DNA of 63,606 nt, the filler included, from Circinaria calcarea (lineage: Eukaryota): assembly GCA_051942165.1 (NCBI GenBank). It is 14 parts of 14 records of this genome, joined end to end, with 100 filler letters (N's around TTAATTAATTAA, not from the genome) between each part and the next. Parts side by side here need not be neighbours in the genome. Positions count along the whole stretch, not along the records: positions 45,555 to 49,995 come from JAVECS010002327.1; 13 more parts are not named here. One strand, given 5' to 3'. Numbering within the stretch: position 1 is the stretch's first letter; each line of letters begins with the position of its first letter. A program made the translations under genes and the position numbers. Below are positions 37,397 to 51,387 of the stretch, in pieces. The notes below the pieces were generated by a model. It had not been told where the DNA came from. It did no database searches and saw only the letters and a list, made by a program, of their open reading frames with translations.

Positions 37397-40300
37397 TCAA
37401 AGGGGTAGGGTGGTGTTGCCGAACCACCACGCATCCGGGTCTTCGTCTTCGTATGTGCGGAAGAAGCTGTCGAAGTCCACGGTCGGCTCGGCAGAAAAGG
37501 GGGAGGGGGTAGCAAGGGTACGATCGAAGAGCGGGGGATCGTTGGGAAAGTGGTCGTAAAAGTCTGTTGCTGATTGGTTGGGAACGGCTGGGGCGAGGCT
37601 GGAATCGAAAATAGCTGGATGTCGATTTGGTGATGGCGAGATAGTGGCTGTTAGGTTCTCGTCATAGATGTTGGTAGTACCATCTGAGAAGAGGTCGGAA
37701 AAGTCTCGGACTGGGTTTTCAGGAAAGTATAGTTCCTGAGGATGGTCGACTTGGAGTTCGGACGTTGACGGTGCTATGGCGGTGCTGGCAGGAACTTGTG
37801 AGGTGTTTTGGATCCCCGCCAAGCCGTTGGAGGAAGTAGGAAGTGCCGCGTGTAAGTAGTTCGGATTGGATTGTGTTTGTGCGTGATTGACTGAGTCCTG
37901 GGATACCGGCGGCGTGGAAGCAGGGTTAGGATGTTCAGAAACACCCTGGCCACGTGTCAAATTGTTAGAAGGGTCAGGGAGGGCTTGTGAATGGGTATTT
38001 GAGGTTAAGTAATCCTCTATATCACGGATAATGCTCTCAACTGTCGGCGCCGAGGCTGTGACGATAGTATCCGTAGGAAGCATGTTACCTTCAGGAACCC
38101 AAAGTAAGGCGTCAGATAAACTAGAGACGCTCGGAGATGAGTGATCTGCGGTGGGCTGCTCGCGTGTCTGGTGCGTCAAGTTCTCATCTGTAGGCGCTGA
38201 TGGTGTAGTGCTGACGCTGAGAGCTCCAGAAGTTTCATTCCCTGTTGAAGTTTCAAAGCGGTCATCAGTGCTGGTTGCTGCAACCTCGGCAGGTGAATCC
38301 TCGTATAGGTCAAAGAAACCCTGGATTGGAGGTGCTGTAACTTTGGTAGGAGGATCTTCGAATATGTTAAAGTTCCATCCTGAAGCATCGTGCTGACCCG
38401 CTCCAAGAAAATCGTCAATAGTATCTTGCTCTGGCGATAGTACAATAGGATTATTGCTGGACCCCAGAGGTGTATGTGGTAGCATGTCAAACTGGGCAGC
38501 CGGTGGAGGATGTGTTGTACGGGGATGACCAGCATTGTATGCGGCTGTGACGTTGAGCGCTGTGGCTGGGACATCACTGGCGTTTGCTCTAGCATGACGT
38601 GCACTGGAAAGGTGTATATTGGCGATTTGAACTCTGGCATTGCGTGATCTCGCGTTGCGTTCTTTGGCGTTGGCGATCCTCGTATGAAGTTCAGCGTTGA
38701 AGAGGCTGTTATTGTGTAGTATGGCACCATGTGCTCCTGTGTCAAATGCCCCTGTGGTAGCTTGGGAAGAACCATGTGTTCCGGTATTAATGGTAAACGG
38801 GACAAGATCAGGATCCTCAGGTTTGGGCATTTGAGTCGCCCATATGTCTGCAAGCCCTGCGCTGGGATGCGGTACTTCTGGATTGATATTGTTGGTCCTA
38901 CTGACTCTAGTATTACCTAGGCCGTATGAGCTTACGCCTGCTGCCCTTGTAGAATTGCCCTGATTCAGGAAGCCGCTGAAGTCTTCGGCACCGGCCATGC
39001 TGATATTGTTTGGTCCATGAGATTTGGCTGCGACTTCGCCAGCCCGGTATTCCACGTTCGTTGCCGATCCTCTCCCCATCCTTGGACTTTTGAAATGCTG
39101 AGGCTGGCTGATGTAATTGGTGCGGTCAAGCCCTCCATTGAATGCGGTAGGAGAATGGTGGAAAGCCGTACTTGAGACATTCTCAAGAATTTGGGCGGGG
39201 ATGTATCTGGTGTCTTGTGAAAGATCATTAAGATCATCACCAGCGTACAACCCCAATTCACCTTGAAAGGCGGAGCCTCTTGCTTGTGCACCATGTATAT
39301 GACTAGTGCTAAGAGGTTTAGCAAAGTAGGGAGTTGTTCCCACTCGGGATAGAAATTTTCTTGGCTGTATGCTACTTGATCGTGATGAATTAGAAAAGCT
39401 ACCTTGTGCGCTATCCTGTTAATCAATTATTAGTTACTATTGCCTGCGTTTTGATGACTTCAGATAAAAAGCACTTACCACATTACTACTCAGACAAGCC
39501 CTCTTTTTGTCTTGTAATTCACTACTAGCTTGGCCTTCGGGCTCGAGAAAGCGCTTCCGCTTAAGGTGATTATTTCCCTGCACTGGACCAGTTCCCTGCG
39601 TTTGTCCAACACCAGTCGCGCAGTTGGTACACACGTGATCTCCTACAGGAAGATATCTCGGTGCTTGTAAATTCTCAGGTGGATCATACAATGATCCAGG
39701 ATGACTTGTATAATGGTGCTAATTCGACAGTCAGATCGGGTATTCAGAAAGGTTAACTAGACTTACCTGGCCATAACCCAATTCTACTTCAGCACTTTGT
39801 GGAACACTCGCCTTTATTGAGCGCGAGGTCGGATTCATGACCTGTGGCATCATATACTTTGCGCGCTTCGATGATCCATCAGCTTCTTCACTGGGTTCTC
39901 CTTCAAGTCGACGCTTTCTACCCTGAATTCAAGTCATTAAATGAATGCTTTCAAACGATCGAACATAACCCACCTGTGGCTTGCTGACAGGTGCGGGCAG
40001 TTGCTCCTCCAGCTTCTCCAACTCCTCGTTGGTTCCACGAGTCTCCAATCGGCCGGTGTTGGCTATCTCATCTTCTGCCCCAGCTTGACCATCCTTGTGG
40101 CGTGCCGACCATGCCCGAGGTAGTAGCTCTCTCGAGAGCTCACTCCAGTGAGTTTTCCCGTTAGCTTCAGCAAGAGCCTTAAGTCTCTTGCTCTCTGCTA
40201 GTGCATCCCTAACTTCATCAGATGGAACGTGTTCGGCCCCATTGATGAGAAAGTAGTCCAAAGGTAAAACCACTTGAGGATTTTTTGGATTAACAATCCC

Positions 40301-45454: not shown

Positions 45455-45554
45455 NNNNNNNNNNNNNNNNNNNNNNNNNNNNNNNNNNNNNNNNNNNNTT
45501 AATTAATTAANNNNNNNNNNNNNNNNNNNNNNNNNNNNNNNNNNNNNNNNNNNN

Positions 45555-47290
45555 GCCCCTTCCCCGCCCCGCCCTCCTTCCTTTCCACCGCCTAAGCCTT
45601 GGCGACAGACATAGCACATGGAGTAGCCGCAGACACACATCATTTTGTTGCAGCCGCTGTCCTTGACGAAGCCGAGGCCGCAGCGAGGACAGGTACGCTT
45701 GAGGGCGGCGGTGCGGGCGGCCTCGACAGTAGTGCGGAGGGAGAGGTGGGCGGATTCGTGGCAGATGTGAGGGTCACGCCAGGGCTTTTGGCAGAGGAGG
45801 CAACTGGTTGCGAGGCAGGAGGGAGAGCGACATTGGAAGCGCGGGGAGAGGTGGGTGGTGCGGGTTAGAGTTCGGAGGGAGTTAGAAAAGAGGGTTTGGA
45901 GGGTTTGGAGGGTTGGGAGGGGAAGGACAAGAGTGAGGATGGTGTAGCAGAGGAGGAGAGGGAAGAAGTTGAAGGCAAGGAAGAGGAGTAACAGGGTTTG
46001 AAGGGGGTGAGATGTGTTGAGGCGATAGCGAAGGGTGGAAGGGGGAAGGTAGAGGTCGTCGAATTCGGCGTAGGGGCAGAAAGGGCAGCGAATTAGTGGG
46101 GCTTGGGACTTGAGGATGGCCTCGTCTGCGAGGCGAGAAGAAAGCTTCTGCCATGTTTGAGGGCCGCCTTTGGTACCGGCGATAGCGCGGTGAGCGAGTG
46201 AGTGCGGTATACAGCCTCTGCAGGGAGTCGAGGATGTGGGTGCGAGGCAAGCCATTTGGCCGCGGGTATGATCAATGTTGAGACCCCAGGATTGTCCATA
46301 GAGGGCTTCCGATGCAGCATGCTGGATGCATGTGAAGCAAACTGTGTGGGCTCCGGCAGTACAGGTAGCCATACGTTCGAAGGTAGTGCTGGAGAAGCAG
46401 CATTCGCACTCATGGAGAGCGTCGGCTTCCTCAGCTTCCTGCTCATTGATAGTAACAGCAACCTCTAAGTCTTGAGCCTCAATATCTTGCTTTCTCTGAT
46501 CGAGAATGGGCTTCAAGACGGTGTTATATAACTCCATATCAAGCTCTCCGTTTCCAGACTCCTTCAAAGTCGGCGCAATCAATAAACTCCGATCCCGTGG
46601 GCCATTCCACACAAGCATGAAGTGGTCCCTCGGATATGGCGGTCCGGACTTCTTCCATTTCGACAAGATCGTACCAAGGCTGATTCTCCAGCTCTTTGCC
46701 GCGAGGCCCAATAGAACTAGTCTTGAAGAGGTATATGAGTGATTTTGCTCCGCCAGTACACCATCGACTGTGCTCTTGCTCAGATTCTTGAATTCCTGGC
46801 ACAGCATAGACCGCACGGCTTGTTTGTAGCTCTCTGTCCTGAATTGCTCTTCCACCGGCAAGATGCCAGTACCCGAACTGTCAGCCCTCGCATCTGACGG
46901 CTCCTCCACCTCGTAAATCTCCTTTGGTGTATTAGGCTCAGTTCCCTTGGAAGGTATACGCCATCTGTCTTTCACCCATTTGGCCTTGTGTTTGAGTAGC
47001 TGTTCCGCAACGATTTGTAATCGACTCTCCCCACTAAAGGTAGTGAGCATCTCACGGAAGACTTCAGGACAGACATCGGGGAAGATGGCAGCCAGAGCAG
47101 CCAATGATTCGTTGAGATCGGTGAGGTCTGGCTGGATTGGTTTTGTAGCCGTAGCATCTCTGGGCAGCACTGTGGCTTGAGAAAGAGATGTTACTGATTT
47201 TGTCGATGATGAGCGGCGGAACAAACGGCGGCGAACTTGGGGTGACCTTGACGGATCTGATGTAGTAGGACGGAAGACTGAGAAGACCAT
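45555..47290 (-). CDS. RBR (RING-IBR-RING) E3 ubiquitin ligase, RNF216/TRIAD3-like, with CUE-like N-terminal motif; 3'-truncated
   Basis: LAAIFPDV CUE-like; RING1 ECECCF..C...H.VC..C; IBR CPFC...C..P.C...SC..C...H.C; RING2 CPRC...FVKDSGCNKMMCVCGYSMCYVC. Confidence 0.9.
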
Positions 47291-47419
47291 CGCAGATGAT
47301 GGTTCTAAGGGAGGACTACATGATGTAGATGTTGGGTCTTGATCCCAGCTTCCGCTCAGTAGTATGATTGTCAGATGAAGTAAGTTTGAATTCTCTGTGG
47401 TGGTTTTTGTTGAATGGGT

Positions 47420-47425
47420 TATATA
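47420..47425 (+). promoter_or_regulatory. Candidate upstream TATA element of the tRNA gene
   Basis: TATATA about 30 bp upstream of the tRNA 5' end at 47453. Confidence 0.45.
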
Positions 47426-47452
47426 TGTCTTTAAGATAATTCGCTTATTATT

Positions 47453-47664
47453 GGCCGCGTGGTTTGTACAATTCAGAATCGAGTTTTCAAGTTATTCCTA
47501 CTGACAGTTCGATTAGGTCTAGTGGTATGATTGTCGCTTCGGGTTTATTGGCCTGAGTATCGCAGATGCTCTTGTATGTGACAGGCCCCGGGTTCAAATA
47601 AGTCTCCCTATCATGTCACAATCTATACTCTCCGCTAATTGTTGATTAAATCCCGGCGCGGCCC
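47453..47664 (+). tRNA. tRNA-Pro-CGG: tRNA-Pro(CGG) split by three introns: 47462-47516 (spliceosomal-like GT-AG), 47544-47576 (canonical 37/38) and 47598-47649 (spliceosomal-like AT-AA)
   Basis: Joined exons give the 72-nt sequence GGCCGCG TG GTCTAGTGGTATGAT T GTCGC TTCGGGT GTGAC AGGCC CCGGG TTCAAAT CCCGG CGCGGCC C. It has a 7/7 acceptor stem, a 5-bp anticodon stem (one G-U) and a 5/5 T stem, and closely resembles eukaryotic tRNA-Pro. Confidence 0.9.
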
Positions 47665-47676
47665 AATATAAAATGA

Positions 47677-47682
47677 TTTTTT
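47677..47682 (+). terminator. RNA polymerase III terminator (T6)
   Basis: TTTTTT 12 nt after the tRNA discriminator base. Confidence 0.7.
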
Positions 47683-49072
47683 GGCTTCTTGAAGGATCAA
47701 AAGTCTGTTATTTATTGTCCCATCATTTCAGGGCATCTTGAACCCCGCAAGGGATTCCCCGCAATAGGAAACAACCATTGTATCTTAATTCCATACATGA
47801 GTATGGTTATTTTATGATAAATCAAGCTTGGAGGAGACTCGTCTGTAACTATATTCCTTAAACTACAGTTGCACTTCTTGGACTGGCCTGATGATAACGA
47901 TTCCCGTGACCGTTTCTCCCTCTCCCCATATCCGTGTAAAGGCGCCAATAATATTACACGAGTACTCTTAAAGTCTTATACGACCTATGGCACTCGGGGA
48001 GAGCTAGTGCATGAAACCATCGCACTTTTCTACAGTGTCCAAGAAAATAAAGACGTCCTTACTCATCCACCAGAAACCGTCTGACCAGAAAGTTTACGCT
48101 TACGAAACCCAACTTCGCCTCATTTTTCAGAGTCTACTCCTGCCACTCTCTCCACCCACTCGCCCTCTCCCTCGCCCTCTCCCTCTTCTTATCCACAGTA
48201 CCGCTTTTCCACCCTCAACGCAACTAAGCGGAATACAGTACCAACATGGCCTATGTAGTGGCCTTCACAATCCAAACGGCTAAAAGATATCGAGATAGCC
48301 GCCACGAAGCCCCTCGGCACGTTGGTTGAATTAAACCCGATAAACCGAGCCTAGCTTAGCATGGATGGAGAGGAGGCGGACAGTGAAGAGATGGCCGCGA
48401 AGTAGGATGGGAATGATGGCAGAGAAAGGGAGGTCGTTTGGGTCTCAAAGCGCCACCAGTATCATTAGAATTATTTCGTATTCCGGTTATCGCACCGAAG
48501 CCAGGGTTCCTGCTAGTAGCAGTATTCCGGAGGATCTGGGCTTTAGCCTATTTGGACCTCCAAACTGGGCAGAGGTCGCTCTTCTAAATATGAAATTAGG
48601 CGGGCGTCGCTGCTATATAGTATAGGTTAGGCTGAGCGGGCGAACACAGGCATAGCAAGGATCCGAGGTTGAGAAGGAGTAATAGGGCCAAGGGCAAAAT
48701 GGCGAGGGTAGGGGTGGAGTCTAGTGGAGGGCTCGGTTAGTAGCTTGAGTGGGTGTTTACGAACGTTCAGTGAGATGGCATGTTGGAGGGTCAAGAGGGT
48801 GGTATTTCACGCTCGGATAGCTAATGTGAAACGTTACTATACTTTGAAGCTGCTAGCTACTCCAAGTTGGGCGGAGCTATTCGAGGTACTGCAACAACGA
48901 ACTTCCCTTTCTTCGATTCCAAGCATAGATGAGTATGTTGAATACTTGAGCTCGCAAAAAGTGGCTCTGGGTGCTTTGTCTCGGGTTGTTCAAAAGCGAA
49001 GCATCTAAGCTTCTTTCTCAGATCTCTCCTAGCTAAATCAACATTTGAAAATGAAACTTGGAGAAAACGAAC

Positions 49073-49616
49073 TCACTGCCCGCTTGGTGTAGTGAGAGAA
49101 AAGCGGCCTCTGGTAATCTTCATACATCTCCCAGGCCGATACTTTCCTGTGAAGAAATCAACTTCCTTTAGGTCCAACCCTAGGTTATAGAATTTCTGTC
49201 GCATGTGGTTGTTAGCCGTCAAGGTTAAGTTCGGTGTCTGCTGATTCTTACGAAACACCCGCAGTAATCGCTCTTCCCAGCCCCTCCGTCTATACATCCA
49301 CCTTTGCAGTAAGCCTGGTATTCAATCTTACTCTGGAAGCTGTCGTGGCAAAAAAAGAGGTAGTTGTCGATGGCGTTTTGATCGAGTGGTGATGCCGGAC
49401 AGTGATCGACAACCGCTCTAAGGTTACCGTACCCGTATCCTAGAACAAGAAATGGTGTATAAGTATCATATACTTTGTAGGGGGGAGAAGAGCACGAGAA
49501 CCTTTTTGGCTCACAAGCGTCTTGCCACAGTAGTAGACTCCTCCCTTGCAAGAATAACCCGCAAGCCCACCACTAGCCAAAGTGAGGGCTGGGAGCATTA
49601 AGTTTGACAGATGCAT
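49073..49616 (-). CDS. Small secreted cysteine-rich protein (effector-like)
   Basis: MHLSNLMLPALTLASGGLA signal peptide; CKGGVYYCGKTL | ...LFFC...YCKGGCIDGGAGKSDYCGC; introns 49501-49440 and probably 49251-49196 (stop at 49225 if the second is retained). Confidence 0.75.
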
Positions 49617-51387
49617 GTTGATTTGGGGCTGGCAGGCACAATATCACTCAAGCAATTGGAATCAACAAAGGGTGTTGGGAGAAGAGAAACGTCTTGAGCC
49701 AAAGAGCTTTCTTTATGCTACCGCCATCAACCTCCTCATATGGAAATAACAAGAAGCTGTTGCAAGAGATTTGATCGGCCTTGGTCGGCCGAGTTGCTCT
49801 CCAACCGGACTTGTTCGTTGTGCAAGCCGTTGGCGTCACACAGTGGTGTGTAGGAGCAAACTAGATTGTAATGACCTTTTGTCATATAGAGTCTCTTGAG
49901 AAATGCGATCAAATCAAAATACTGGTGGACAAGGCTAAAGCGCGTACAGAGGCATGCATAGTCCGTAACTGCCTTCGTATACAAAAGACCTTGGCNNNNN
50001 NNNNNNNNNNNNNNNNNNNNNNNNNNNNNNNNNNNNNNNTTAATTAATTAANNNNNNNNNNNNNNNNNNNNNNNNNNNNNNNNNNNNNNNNNNNNATTAT
50101 ATACACCCCGGACTTAGGATTTCTAATTGCTGTTTTCGGTCGGGAAAGAGAGCAGGGCCGCTTTAGAGAGAGTATTGAGGGAGTAAGGGGGAAGCACCGG
50201 AGGAGCGAGCATTGGGGGAGCAGGAGGGAGCATAAGGGGACAGTGCAGGGGCGCAGTAGCGGGAGCCTGAAATGGCTCTATCGACATCGGTTTGAGCTGC
50301 CCTCGTTATTTTCTGCTGTCTATTATGATCGCATGCCGAATGATTCAACTTTCCACTGTTTTAGTACACTGGCTGCTTTTGAAAATTCAGAATTCTATAG
50401 ATACACAATCGATTTGTCTGTATTGCTTACAACCATAATCAAAAAAATTAACGCGGCTTTAAGCAAACTCGGAACGCCCACTCCGCGAAGGATTAGACAG
50501 GGAATAATGGATGTGTACAGACTGCTAATACTATAGGTGACCGCGTCGAGCAACTTTGAAAACAAATTTATAATAACCCTCTATCCTTAATGCCTGTAAG
50601 TAGCACTATCTCTGTGGCTTTATTTACACACAGGCCCTCCCAATATTGGTAGCGGGGCAGCCGCAGACGCGGACTGGGGTAGTACAAGTGGCACTCATTG
50701 ACATTGCACGTTCTAGTACAGGCCTAAAAGAAAATGAGAAATTGGGCTGTGGTTGGTTTTTTTGGGGATAAGCTTACCCTTCAGAAAGGAGGTGCATTAC
50801 AGGGAGGGCGCTACGTCTTCAATCGGCTACACGATATAACCGGAATGTATGTATGATAAAGTGTTACTGAAATACTATGGAAATGCTGTGAGATCTTGCT
50901 TCTGTGTTATGTGTAGTGTGTGTGAGATGTGTGTGAAAGAATACTCGGGGGATCCCTGAGATATGGAAGGAAAAAGGCGTTTAATTAACATTATTTCCCC
51001 GCTATCTCCTCCACGCGTTCCAATTATAAAATTCGCTAATTTTCGGCCATTTTAGCGAAGGCGTTTTTCACCCGCTCCCGCATTATATCCGCTCCCGTAA
51101 TAATTTTTATTACGTAAATAACTATTGATTTTTCCTTCCCGTCGCGTCAGCATAATTGAGTATATATTGCCGCTGAAAATAATTGGCTGGTATTACTGCG
51201 AGTGGGTATATTAATTGGCATTAATTGGTGCGCTTCGCATTAAACGTTATATAAAGGCGTTCAATATTAGCCAAGGAAACTAATGATTCAATGTCGACTT
51301 TATTCTATGCCTGGCTTTGTTTATATAAGTCTGCTATGGCTGCTTGTTTGCTGGGTAGGGATATATCGCGTGGTAGAACTTCGCGCC

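Follow-up and report, generated by a model that had tools for sequence, protein, structure and literature searches.

Can an intron that begins with AT and ends with AA be removed from a tRNA precursor by the major spliceosome, or is it a GT-AG intron that has been crippled at both ends? This question is raised by a predicted tRNA-Pro(CGG) gene of Circinaria calcarea, which lies at 47453–47664 (+) of the 63,606-nt stretch of DNA analyzed here (the window) and is interrupted in three places along its 212 nt (Table 1). The window is made up of 14 pieces of 4435–4463 nt, arranged in order of descending size and joined by N44-TTAATTAATTAA-N44 linkers (e.g., 45455–45554 and 49996–50095). As it is a chain of separate contigs from a fragmented draft, pieces that adjoin here are not genomic neighbors. 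The real context of the tRNA gene is therefore restricted to 45555–49995. On the minus strand of this same piece lies a truncated gene encoding an IBR half-RING domain (Pfam PF01485, E = 2.9e-5), which is oriented divergently from the tRNA gene and has its start codon near 47290, approximately 160 nt away. In the 2.3 kb on the 3′ side of the tRNA gene (47700–49995), no open frame of more than 115 codons was found on either strand. Other pieces of the window encode a cytochrome P450 and a multicopper oxidase.

A predicted tRNA-Pro(CGG) gene with three inserts

Whether or not its intron option was used, ARAGORN reported no tRNA in the intact window, and no Rfam match was found in the window at gathering scores, nor in 47300–47800 at E-values up to 10. 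When either the D-arm insert (I1) or the T-loop insert (I3) was excised by coordinates on its own, ARAGORN still reported no tRNA. Excision of both led it to call a tRNA with a 33-nt intron in the anticodon loop (I2), and excision of all three inserts resulted in a 72-nt tRNA-Pro(CGG) with all stems paired: 21 out of 21 stem pairs are intact, one of them being G-U. The silence of both programs on the intact gene shows why standard tRNA finders miss genes of this kind.

Taking I2 out at the 37/38 site yields Pro(CGG) with an anticodon loop of 7 nt, while ARAGORN's own placement of this insert, at 34/35 (Thr-cgt), represents an alternative register. A TATA element upstream and a run of T residues downstream are typical of tRNA genes transcribed by RNA polymerase III (Pol III). 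After in silico excision, the cloverleaf, the anticodon, and the Pol III-type flanks of the predicted tRNA-Pro gene are all present, although the upstream TATATAT could equally serve the divergent IBR-domain gene. The B-box region of the tRNA gene is split by I3.

A hexamer that perfectly resembles a 5′ splice site, GTATGT, is located at 47574–47579 (+), where it spans the 3′ end of I2 and the anticodon stem; no 3′ site that would give a sensible product was found for it.

Table 1. Coordinates of the predicted tRNA-Pro(CGG) gene, its inserts, and nearby signals in the window
Feature	Position	Strand	Basis
TATATAT, 27–33 nt 5′ of the tRNA start	47420..47426	+	Read from sequence; function putative
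Exon 1, 9 nt: acceptor 5′ strand and nt 8–9	47453..47461	+	ARAGORN on coordinate-excised model
Insert I1, 55 nt, between tRNA nt 9 and 10, D arm	47462..47516	+	Sequence, ARAGORN, host-intron match
Exon 2a, 27 nt: D arm, 5′ anticodon stem, loop to G37	47517..47543	+	ARAGORN
Insert I2, 33 nt: ordinary tRNA intron at the canonical 37/38 site	47544..47576	+	ARAGORN after removal
Exon 2b, 21 nt: nt 38, 3′ anticodon stem, variable loop, 5′ T stem, TTCAA of T loop	47577..47597	+	ARAGORN
AAAT junction repeat, copy 1 (copy 2 at 47648–47651)	47596..47599	+	Sequence
Insert I3, 52 nt, T loop, ATAAGT...GCTAAT...TAA	47598..47649	+	Sequence, ARAGORN, signal counts
5′ splice-site-like hexamer ATAAGT of I3: consensus at +2 to +6, A at +1	47598..47603	+	Sequence
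Branch-site-like GCTAAT of I3, branch A at 47638, 11 nt before the insert end	47634..47639	+	Sequence, signal counts
3′ end TAA of I3: Y at −3, A at −2, A for G at −1	47647..47649	+	Sequence
Exon 3, 15 nt: T-loop AT, 3′ T stem, acceptor 3′ strand, discriminator C	47650..47664	+	ARAGORN
T6 run, 12 nt past the tRNA end, resembling a Pol III terminator	47677..47682	+	Sequence, related contig

Judged by its signals, I1 is a complete mRNA-type GT-AG intron. It reads GTTTGT at its start and ACTGAC at 47500–47505 (branch A at 47504), followed 12 nt on by a terminal TAG, and both its length and its signals agree with those of the host introns described below. It contains a T4 run at 47484–47487 and is flanked by a 3-nt GGT repeat, which arises because the exon context is G|GT. 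If I3 is counted as a second mRNA-type intron, the presence of two such introns and an ordinary tRNA intron in a single tRNA gene means that two unrelated splicing machineries would be needed for its maturation.

Intron-like signals and register of the T-loop insert

The locus had previously been read from its sequence alone as carrying a 52-nt T-loop insert at 47598–47649 (+) that starts with ATAAGT, contains GCTAAT, and ends with TTAA, and this description proved accurate. The insert separates TTCAA from ATCCCGG of the T loop. Since AAAT is present at both junctions, five different 52-nt excisions lead to an identical product; among these five registers, 47598–47649 is the only one that displays all three signals, so that the register chosen in the sequence-only reading is the best one. 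The same reading had set aside repeat-induced point mutation (RIP) on the grounds of context, correctly so, as a G at either end of I3 would come after A rather than T.

To obtain a reference for these signals, host mRNA introns were collected from the same assembly with a screen for introns that join open reading frames (ORFs), which gave 10 candidate 3′ sites, 7–8 of which were judged plausible. This stricter screen was used in place of a looser first screen for ORF continuity, which was noisy, with 1605 candidates. The host introns, found across the pieces of the window, are of the kind seen in filamentous ascomycetes: they measure 47–74 nt, start with GTAAGN, GTATGN, or GTAGGT, and contain ACTAAT, GCTAAC, or ACTGAT as branch motif, with the branch A 9–17 nt from the end. 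I3 agrees with them on every count but its two end letters. Its 52 nt fall within the length range of this small set, and its branch site matches CTRAY at a distance of 11 nt from the end. Its 5′ site departs from GURNGU at +1, which is A, with the consensus TAAGT at +2 to +6, and its 3′ end reads TAA instead of YAG, the base at −1 being A. No AG occurs from the I3 branch site through 47690, and no alternative GT, AG, or AC is positioned such that a canonical or an AT-AC excision of I3 could result. We take the 5′ site and branch site of I3 to be unlike the rigid U12-type consensus, and its signals to be of the U2 type.

Such a combination is rare by chance. An NTAAGT start, CTRAY at 8–20 nt from the end, and a YAN end were found together in 2 of the 123,182 52-mers on both strands of the window; these 2 were counted rather than itemized, and I3 itself satisfies the pattern. 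The product of the single signal frequencies amounts to 3e-6, or approximately 1.5e-5 when five registers are allowed. In a loose regular-expression census of intron-like strings, 57 were counted against a shuffle mean of 84, which is no enrichment, and in the accompanying census of end pairs, G..G was seen 24 times against 13–24 for other pairs, which is no clear excess; both counts were set aside as carrying no information. From the match in length, branch motif, and spacing, together with the rarity by chance and the single fitting register, we infer that I3 is an mRNA-type (U2-type spliceosomal) intron by descent, apart from its first and last base.

Published precedents and a related sequence

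What can be expected of such an intron depends on its end bases. When the 3′ splice site docks for exon ligation, the two terminal Gs of an intron form a pair, and AU-AC is described as a tolerated alternative end pair, with C being the partner named for A(+1) (10.1101/212811). Parker and Siliciano 1993 is the source on intron end bases that is cited both there and in PMC4299874. According to the latter, A at +1 stops exon ligation, the second step of splicing, in budding yeast and human introns. The telomerase RNA of Aspergillus, which carries AUA(A/C)GU together with branch and 3′ sites, gives mainly the first-step product, and full splicing is restored by an A1G change (Kannan et al. 2015, PMC4299874). 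On the basis of these reports, the expectation for an ATAAGT...TAA intron of a filamentous ascomycete is recognition and perhaps branching, but no efficient ligation. AT-AA ends are reported in PMC1557818 (Table 2) for 8 cases in five species, which are U12-type introns only. The U2-type exceptions given in that survey are AT-AC introns (24 cases), which were identified there through a 5′ site that is of good U2 type at all positions but +1, and no U2-type AT-AA intron is among the cases it reports.

Spliceosomal introns in noncoding RNA genes have been described for U6 of S. pombe and other fungi (a Pol III transcript), for Rhodotorula U2, U1, and U5 snRNA, and for rRNA genes of ascomycetes (PMC5855946, citing Tani and Ohshima 1989, 1991; Takahashi 1993, 1996; and Bhattacharya 2000). 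tRNA genes are missing from the list given in that paper, a full-text literature search returned no description of mRNA-type introns in tRNA genes, and AT-AA ends came up in this search in a U12 context only. I3 is thus a member of a class for which we found no published description, with end bases that are unrecorded for U2-type introns in these sources.

Several known systems resemble I3 in part. The snRNA and rRNA introns share with it that a short intron with mRNA-type sites interrupts a structured, conserved noncoding RNA; they differ in that the host here is a tRNA and that I3 lacks the terminal Gs. The telomerase RNA intron of Aspergillus is closer, as it combines the same AUAAGU and a normal branch site (ATAAGT and GCTAAT in I3) with a natural A(+1), likewise in a filamentous ascomycete (PMC4299874). 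There, however, the second exon is discarded, while the 3′ exon of I3 is indispensable for the tRNA and the last base is A as well. The context also differs: rather than an RNA 3′ end with an Sm-type site and a dispensable exon, I3 has a tRNA host of which exon 3 completes the stems. U2-type AT-AC (“type II”) introns, such as those of human SCN4A and SCN5A, have the same A(+1) in a good U2 5′ site and a changed last base (PMC1557818), but this base is C there and A in I3, which starts with AT and ends with AA, and none of its registers yields AC. The terminal dinucleotides of I3 are those of the U12-type AT-AA introns (PMC1557818). Finally, ectopic tRNA introns with a bulge-helix-bulge (BHB) motif, known from archaea and Cyanidioschyzon merolae (PMC4090602, PMC3978253), may occur several to a gene and at noncanonical sites, including the T arm. 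I3 differs from these in its spliceosomal signals, and no BHB could be folded around it; nor does it lie at the 37/38 position, which is occupied by I2.

Words matching the window were found in two public biocrust metagenome runs (shares of 0.06 and 0.05). A related metagenome DNA contig of 1412 nt covers 46302–47694 at approximately 92% identity without joints, differing from the window by 108 other letters and 12 gap letters; differences were compared base by base up to 47095, and the tRNA gene was compared by its layout and indels. Since this contig runs through the gene without a joint, the relative has all three inserts. Within the 212-nt gene, a single 1-nt indel was found, an extra T that turns the T4 run of I1 into T5. 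The flanks contain three indels in the 162 nt upstream of the gene and one in the 30-nt trailer, where the terminator-like T6 run has gained 2 nt. The low number of indels in the gene relative to its flanks hints at constraint on the gene, including the lengths of its inserts. The T5 run inside I1 of the relative is awkward for a Pol III transcript, and is not what one would expect under tight constraint on a gene of this type. Between 47262 and 47452, four indel events were counted, and three of these fall within the 162 nt directly upstream of the gene. Contigs from metatranscriptome RNA cover 46302–47083 only, which is part of the neighboring gene.

The search for further T-loop-split tRNA-Pro genes, based on the exact exon pattern with a gap of 35–65 nt, gave a single match among metagenome contigs, located in a high-GC bacterial coding stretch and attributed to chance. 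With a relaxed pattern, 14 matches were obtained among prokaryote genome contigs, all of them in bacterial or archaeal metagenome-assembled genomes or chromosomes; 4 of these represented one orthologous gene, and none was fungal. No matches were found in the viral contigs scanned.

Candidate explanations for the altered ends

The explanation that we tentatively prefer, while placing it somewhat short of probable, is that a GT-AG intron in the T loop was crippled by overwriting of its end bases, and that the gene has recently been disabled or has become very inefficient. In this scenario, the first and last G of an ancestral GT-AG intron became A, while the inner signals were kept. The two end letters of I3 are the exon letters of the unbroken T loop: A59 would follow the 5′ junction, and A58 would precede the 3′ junction. 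This identity accounts for the AAAT repeat that flanks I3. One route to this state would be gene conversion from an intron-less tRNA-Pro paralog or from a spliced cDNA, with conversion tracts that extend into either end of the intron by one or two bases; these would write AT at its start and A at its end, and would create the AAAT repeat in one step. The other route would consist of two separate transitions. As the exon context of I1, G|GT, equals its own intron ends, the same overwriting would leave I1 as GT-AG, which is what is observed; around I3, the exons read A|AT, and its own ends are AT...A. This match between end bases and exon letters suggests overwriting rather than adaptation. U1 and U6 would still recognize the 5′ site, and the branch site would still be recognized as well, so that branching may take place, but exon ligation would be blocked or very inefficient, and this copy would yield little or no mature tRNA. 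Both the history of overwriting and the block at the second step are put forward here as the most fitting account of the end bases and the published precedents.

Certain features of the gene speak against this explanation. Its exons show no decay whatsoever, with every stem pair holding, the signals of I1 are perfect, and the terminator-like T run has been kept and is even longer in the relative, which also shows but one 1-nt indel in the gene. These features imply that, if the copy is dead, its death was recent. In addition, the U12-type AT-AA introns show that A/A ends can be ligated in a related active site (PMC1557818). The 72 exon bases and approximately 12 signal bases are perfect, while both end bases are altered. 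Two independent hits on exactly these two bases are very unlikely by drift, which favors a linked cause, and we propose either compensation or conversion as such a cause for both ends. If the gene is dead, it would show how exon-guided overwriting can kill introns with an exon context other than G|G.

Compensation would leave the gene functional: I3 would then be a working U2-type AT-AA intron, in which A(+1):A(−1) replaces G:G and which is removed exactly by the major spliceosome, giving a functional tRNA-Pro(CGG). The alteration of both ends and nothing else agrees with this, as do the intact exons, I1, and terminator-like run, and the retention of the layout and all insert lengths in the relative (for I1, apart from the one extra T). 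The 5′ site is otherwise of the strongest consensus, with C and A at −3 and −2 and TAAGT at +2 to +6, as in U2-type AT-AC introns, and the 8 natural AT-AA cases show that the minor spliceosome handles such ends (PMC1557818). Nevertheless, the survey that reports these cases offers no U2-type AT-AA precedent among them, A(+1) combined with AG blocks the second step in fungi (PMC4299874), and C is the only partner that 10.1101/212811 names as tolerated in the major spliceosome. We therefore consider a working AT-AA intron rather unlikely. Of the earlier proposal of a noncanonical U2-type intron with compensating ends, the first part is supported for all but the two end bases, given signals far beyond chance next to the canonical GT-AG intron I1, while the compensating ends are doubtful in light of the published record on A(+1). 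Were I3 spliced after all, the major spliceosome would be shown to accept an A:A end pair, and maturation of each tRNA would involve two rounds of spliceosome action and one of the tRNA endonuclease. For the rule that links the first and the last intron base, the I3 locus provides a clean test case of natural origin, set in a host gene of an unusual kind. A block after branching could also be put to use: in programmed cleavage limited to the first step, a cut after A58 would free a 3′-truncated tRNA fragment, acting as a regulator or an off-switch. The 5′ site is identical to the AUAAGU of A. niger, the branch site lies at a normal distance, and a last base other than G would hinder ligation further. 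However, the 15-nt 3′ exon is perfectly complementary to the 5′ strands of the acceptor and T stem, which would be pointless if it were never joined, the sequence before the cut has no stabilizing element comparable to the telomerase RNA Sm site, and we know of no function for such a 3′-truncated tRNA fragment. This makes the idea an improbable one; if I3 does stop after branching, it would provide a second natural instance in which AUAAGU, the signal of Aspergillus telomerase RNA, is either put to use or fails.

The remaining explanations do without a spliceosomal history or without altered ends. I3 may never have been a GT-AG intron, but filler DNA or a small mobile element inserted at a staggered break, with AAAT (or AAT) as target-site duplication. 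The 4-nt direct repeat at its junctions fits this, and I1 is likewise bordered by a 3-nt GGT repeat, yet the latter follows automatically from the G|GT context. Moreover, the 48 nt between the I3 repeats would have to start with AAGT, place CTAAT correctly, and end with a pyrimidine, for which we estimate a chance of approximately 8e-5 from the counted frequency of the branch motif and uniform 4-mer odds. I1 and I3 are also unlike each other beyond their signals, 475 out of 2000 signal-preserving shuffles reaching their alignment score. No second copy of I3 and no inverted ends were detected in the 62 kb of the 14 contigs, so that the dispersed repeat with a 4-bp target duplication, raised as an alternative in the sequence-only reading, found no support, and we regard any insertion of this type as very doubtful. 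An assembly or sequencing error at one or both ends of a normal GT-AG intron would be in keeping with a fragmented draft of roughly 4.4-kb contigs, but would call for two errors of the same kind exactly on both end bases of a gene that is otherwise clean, and is highly improbable for this reason. Hardly credible, lastly, is removal by the tRNA-splicing endonuclease through a BHB, the route described for ectopic tRNA introns in archaea and the red alga Cyanidioschyzon. Although I2 already requires this enzyme, I3 is nearly unstructured (−1.7 kcal/mol), both of its junctions lie in open loops in local and full minimum free energy folds, with no 4-bp helix between 3-nt bulges, and its intron-like signals would be left without explanation.

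Between I3 and the host mRNA intron at 39416–39478 (minus strand), no homology was found beyond the common signals; this host intron has GATTAA near its end. Similarly, GATTA immediately precedes the last base in both I1 (47511–47515, ...GATTAG) and I3 (47644–47648, ...GATTAA).
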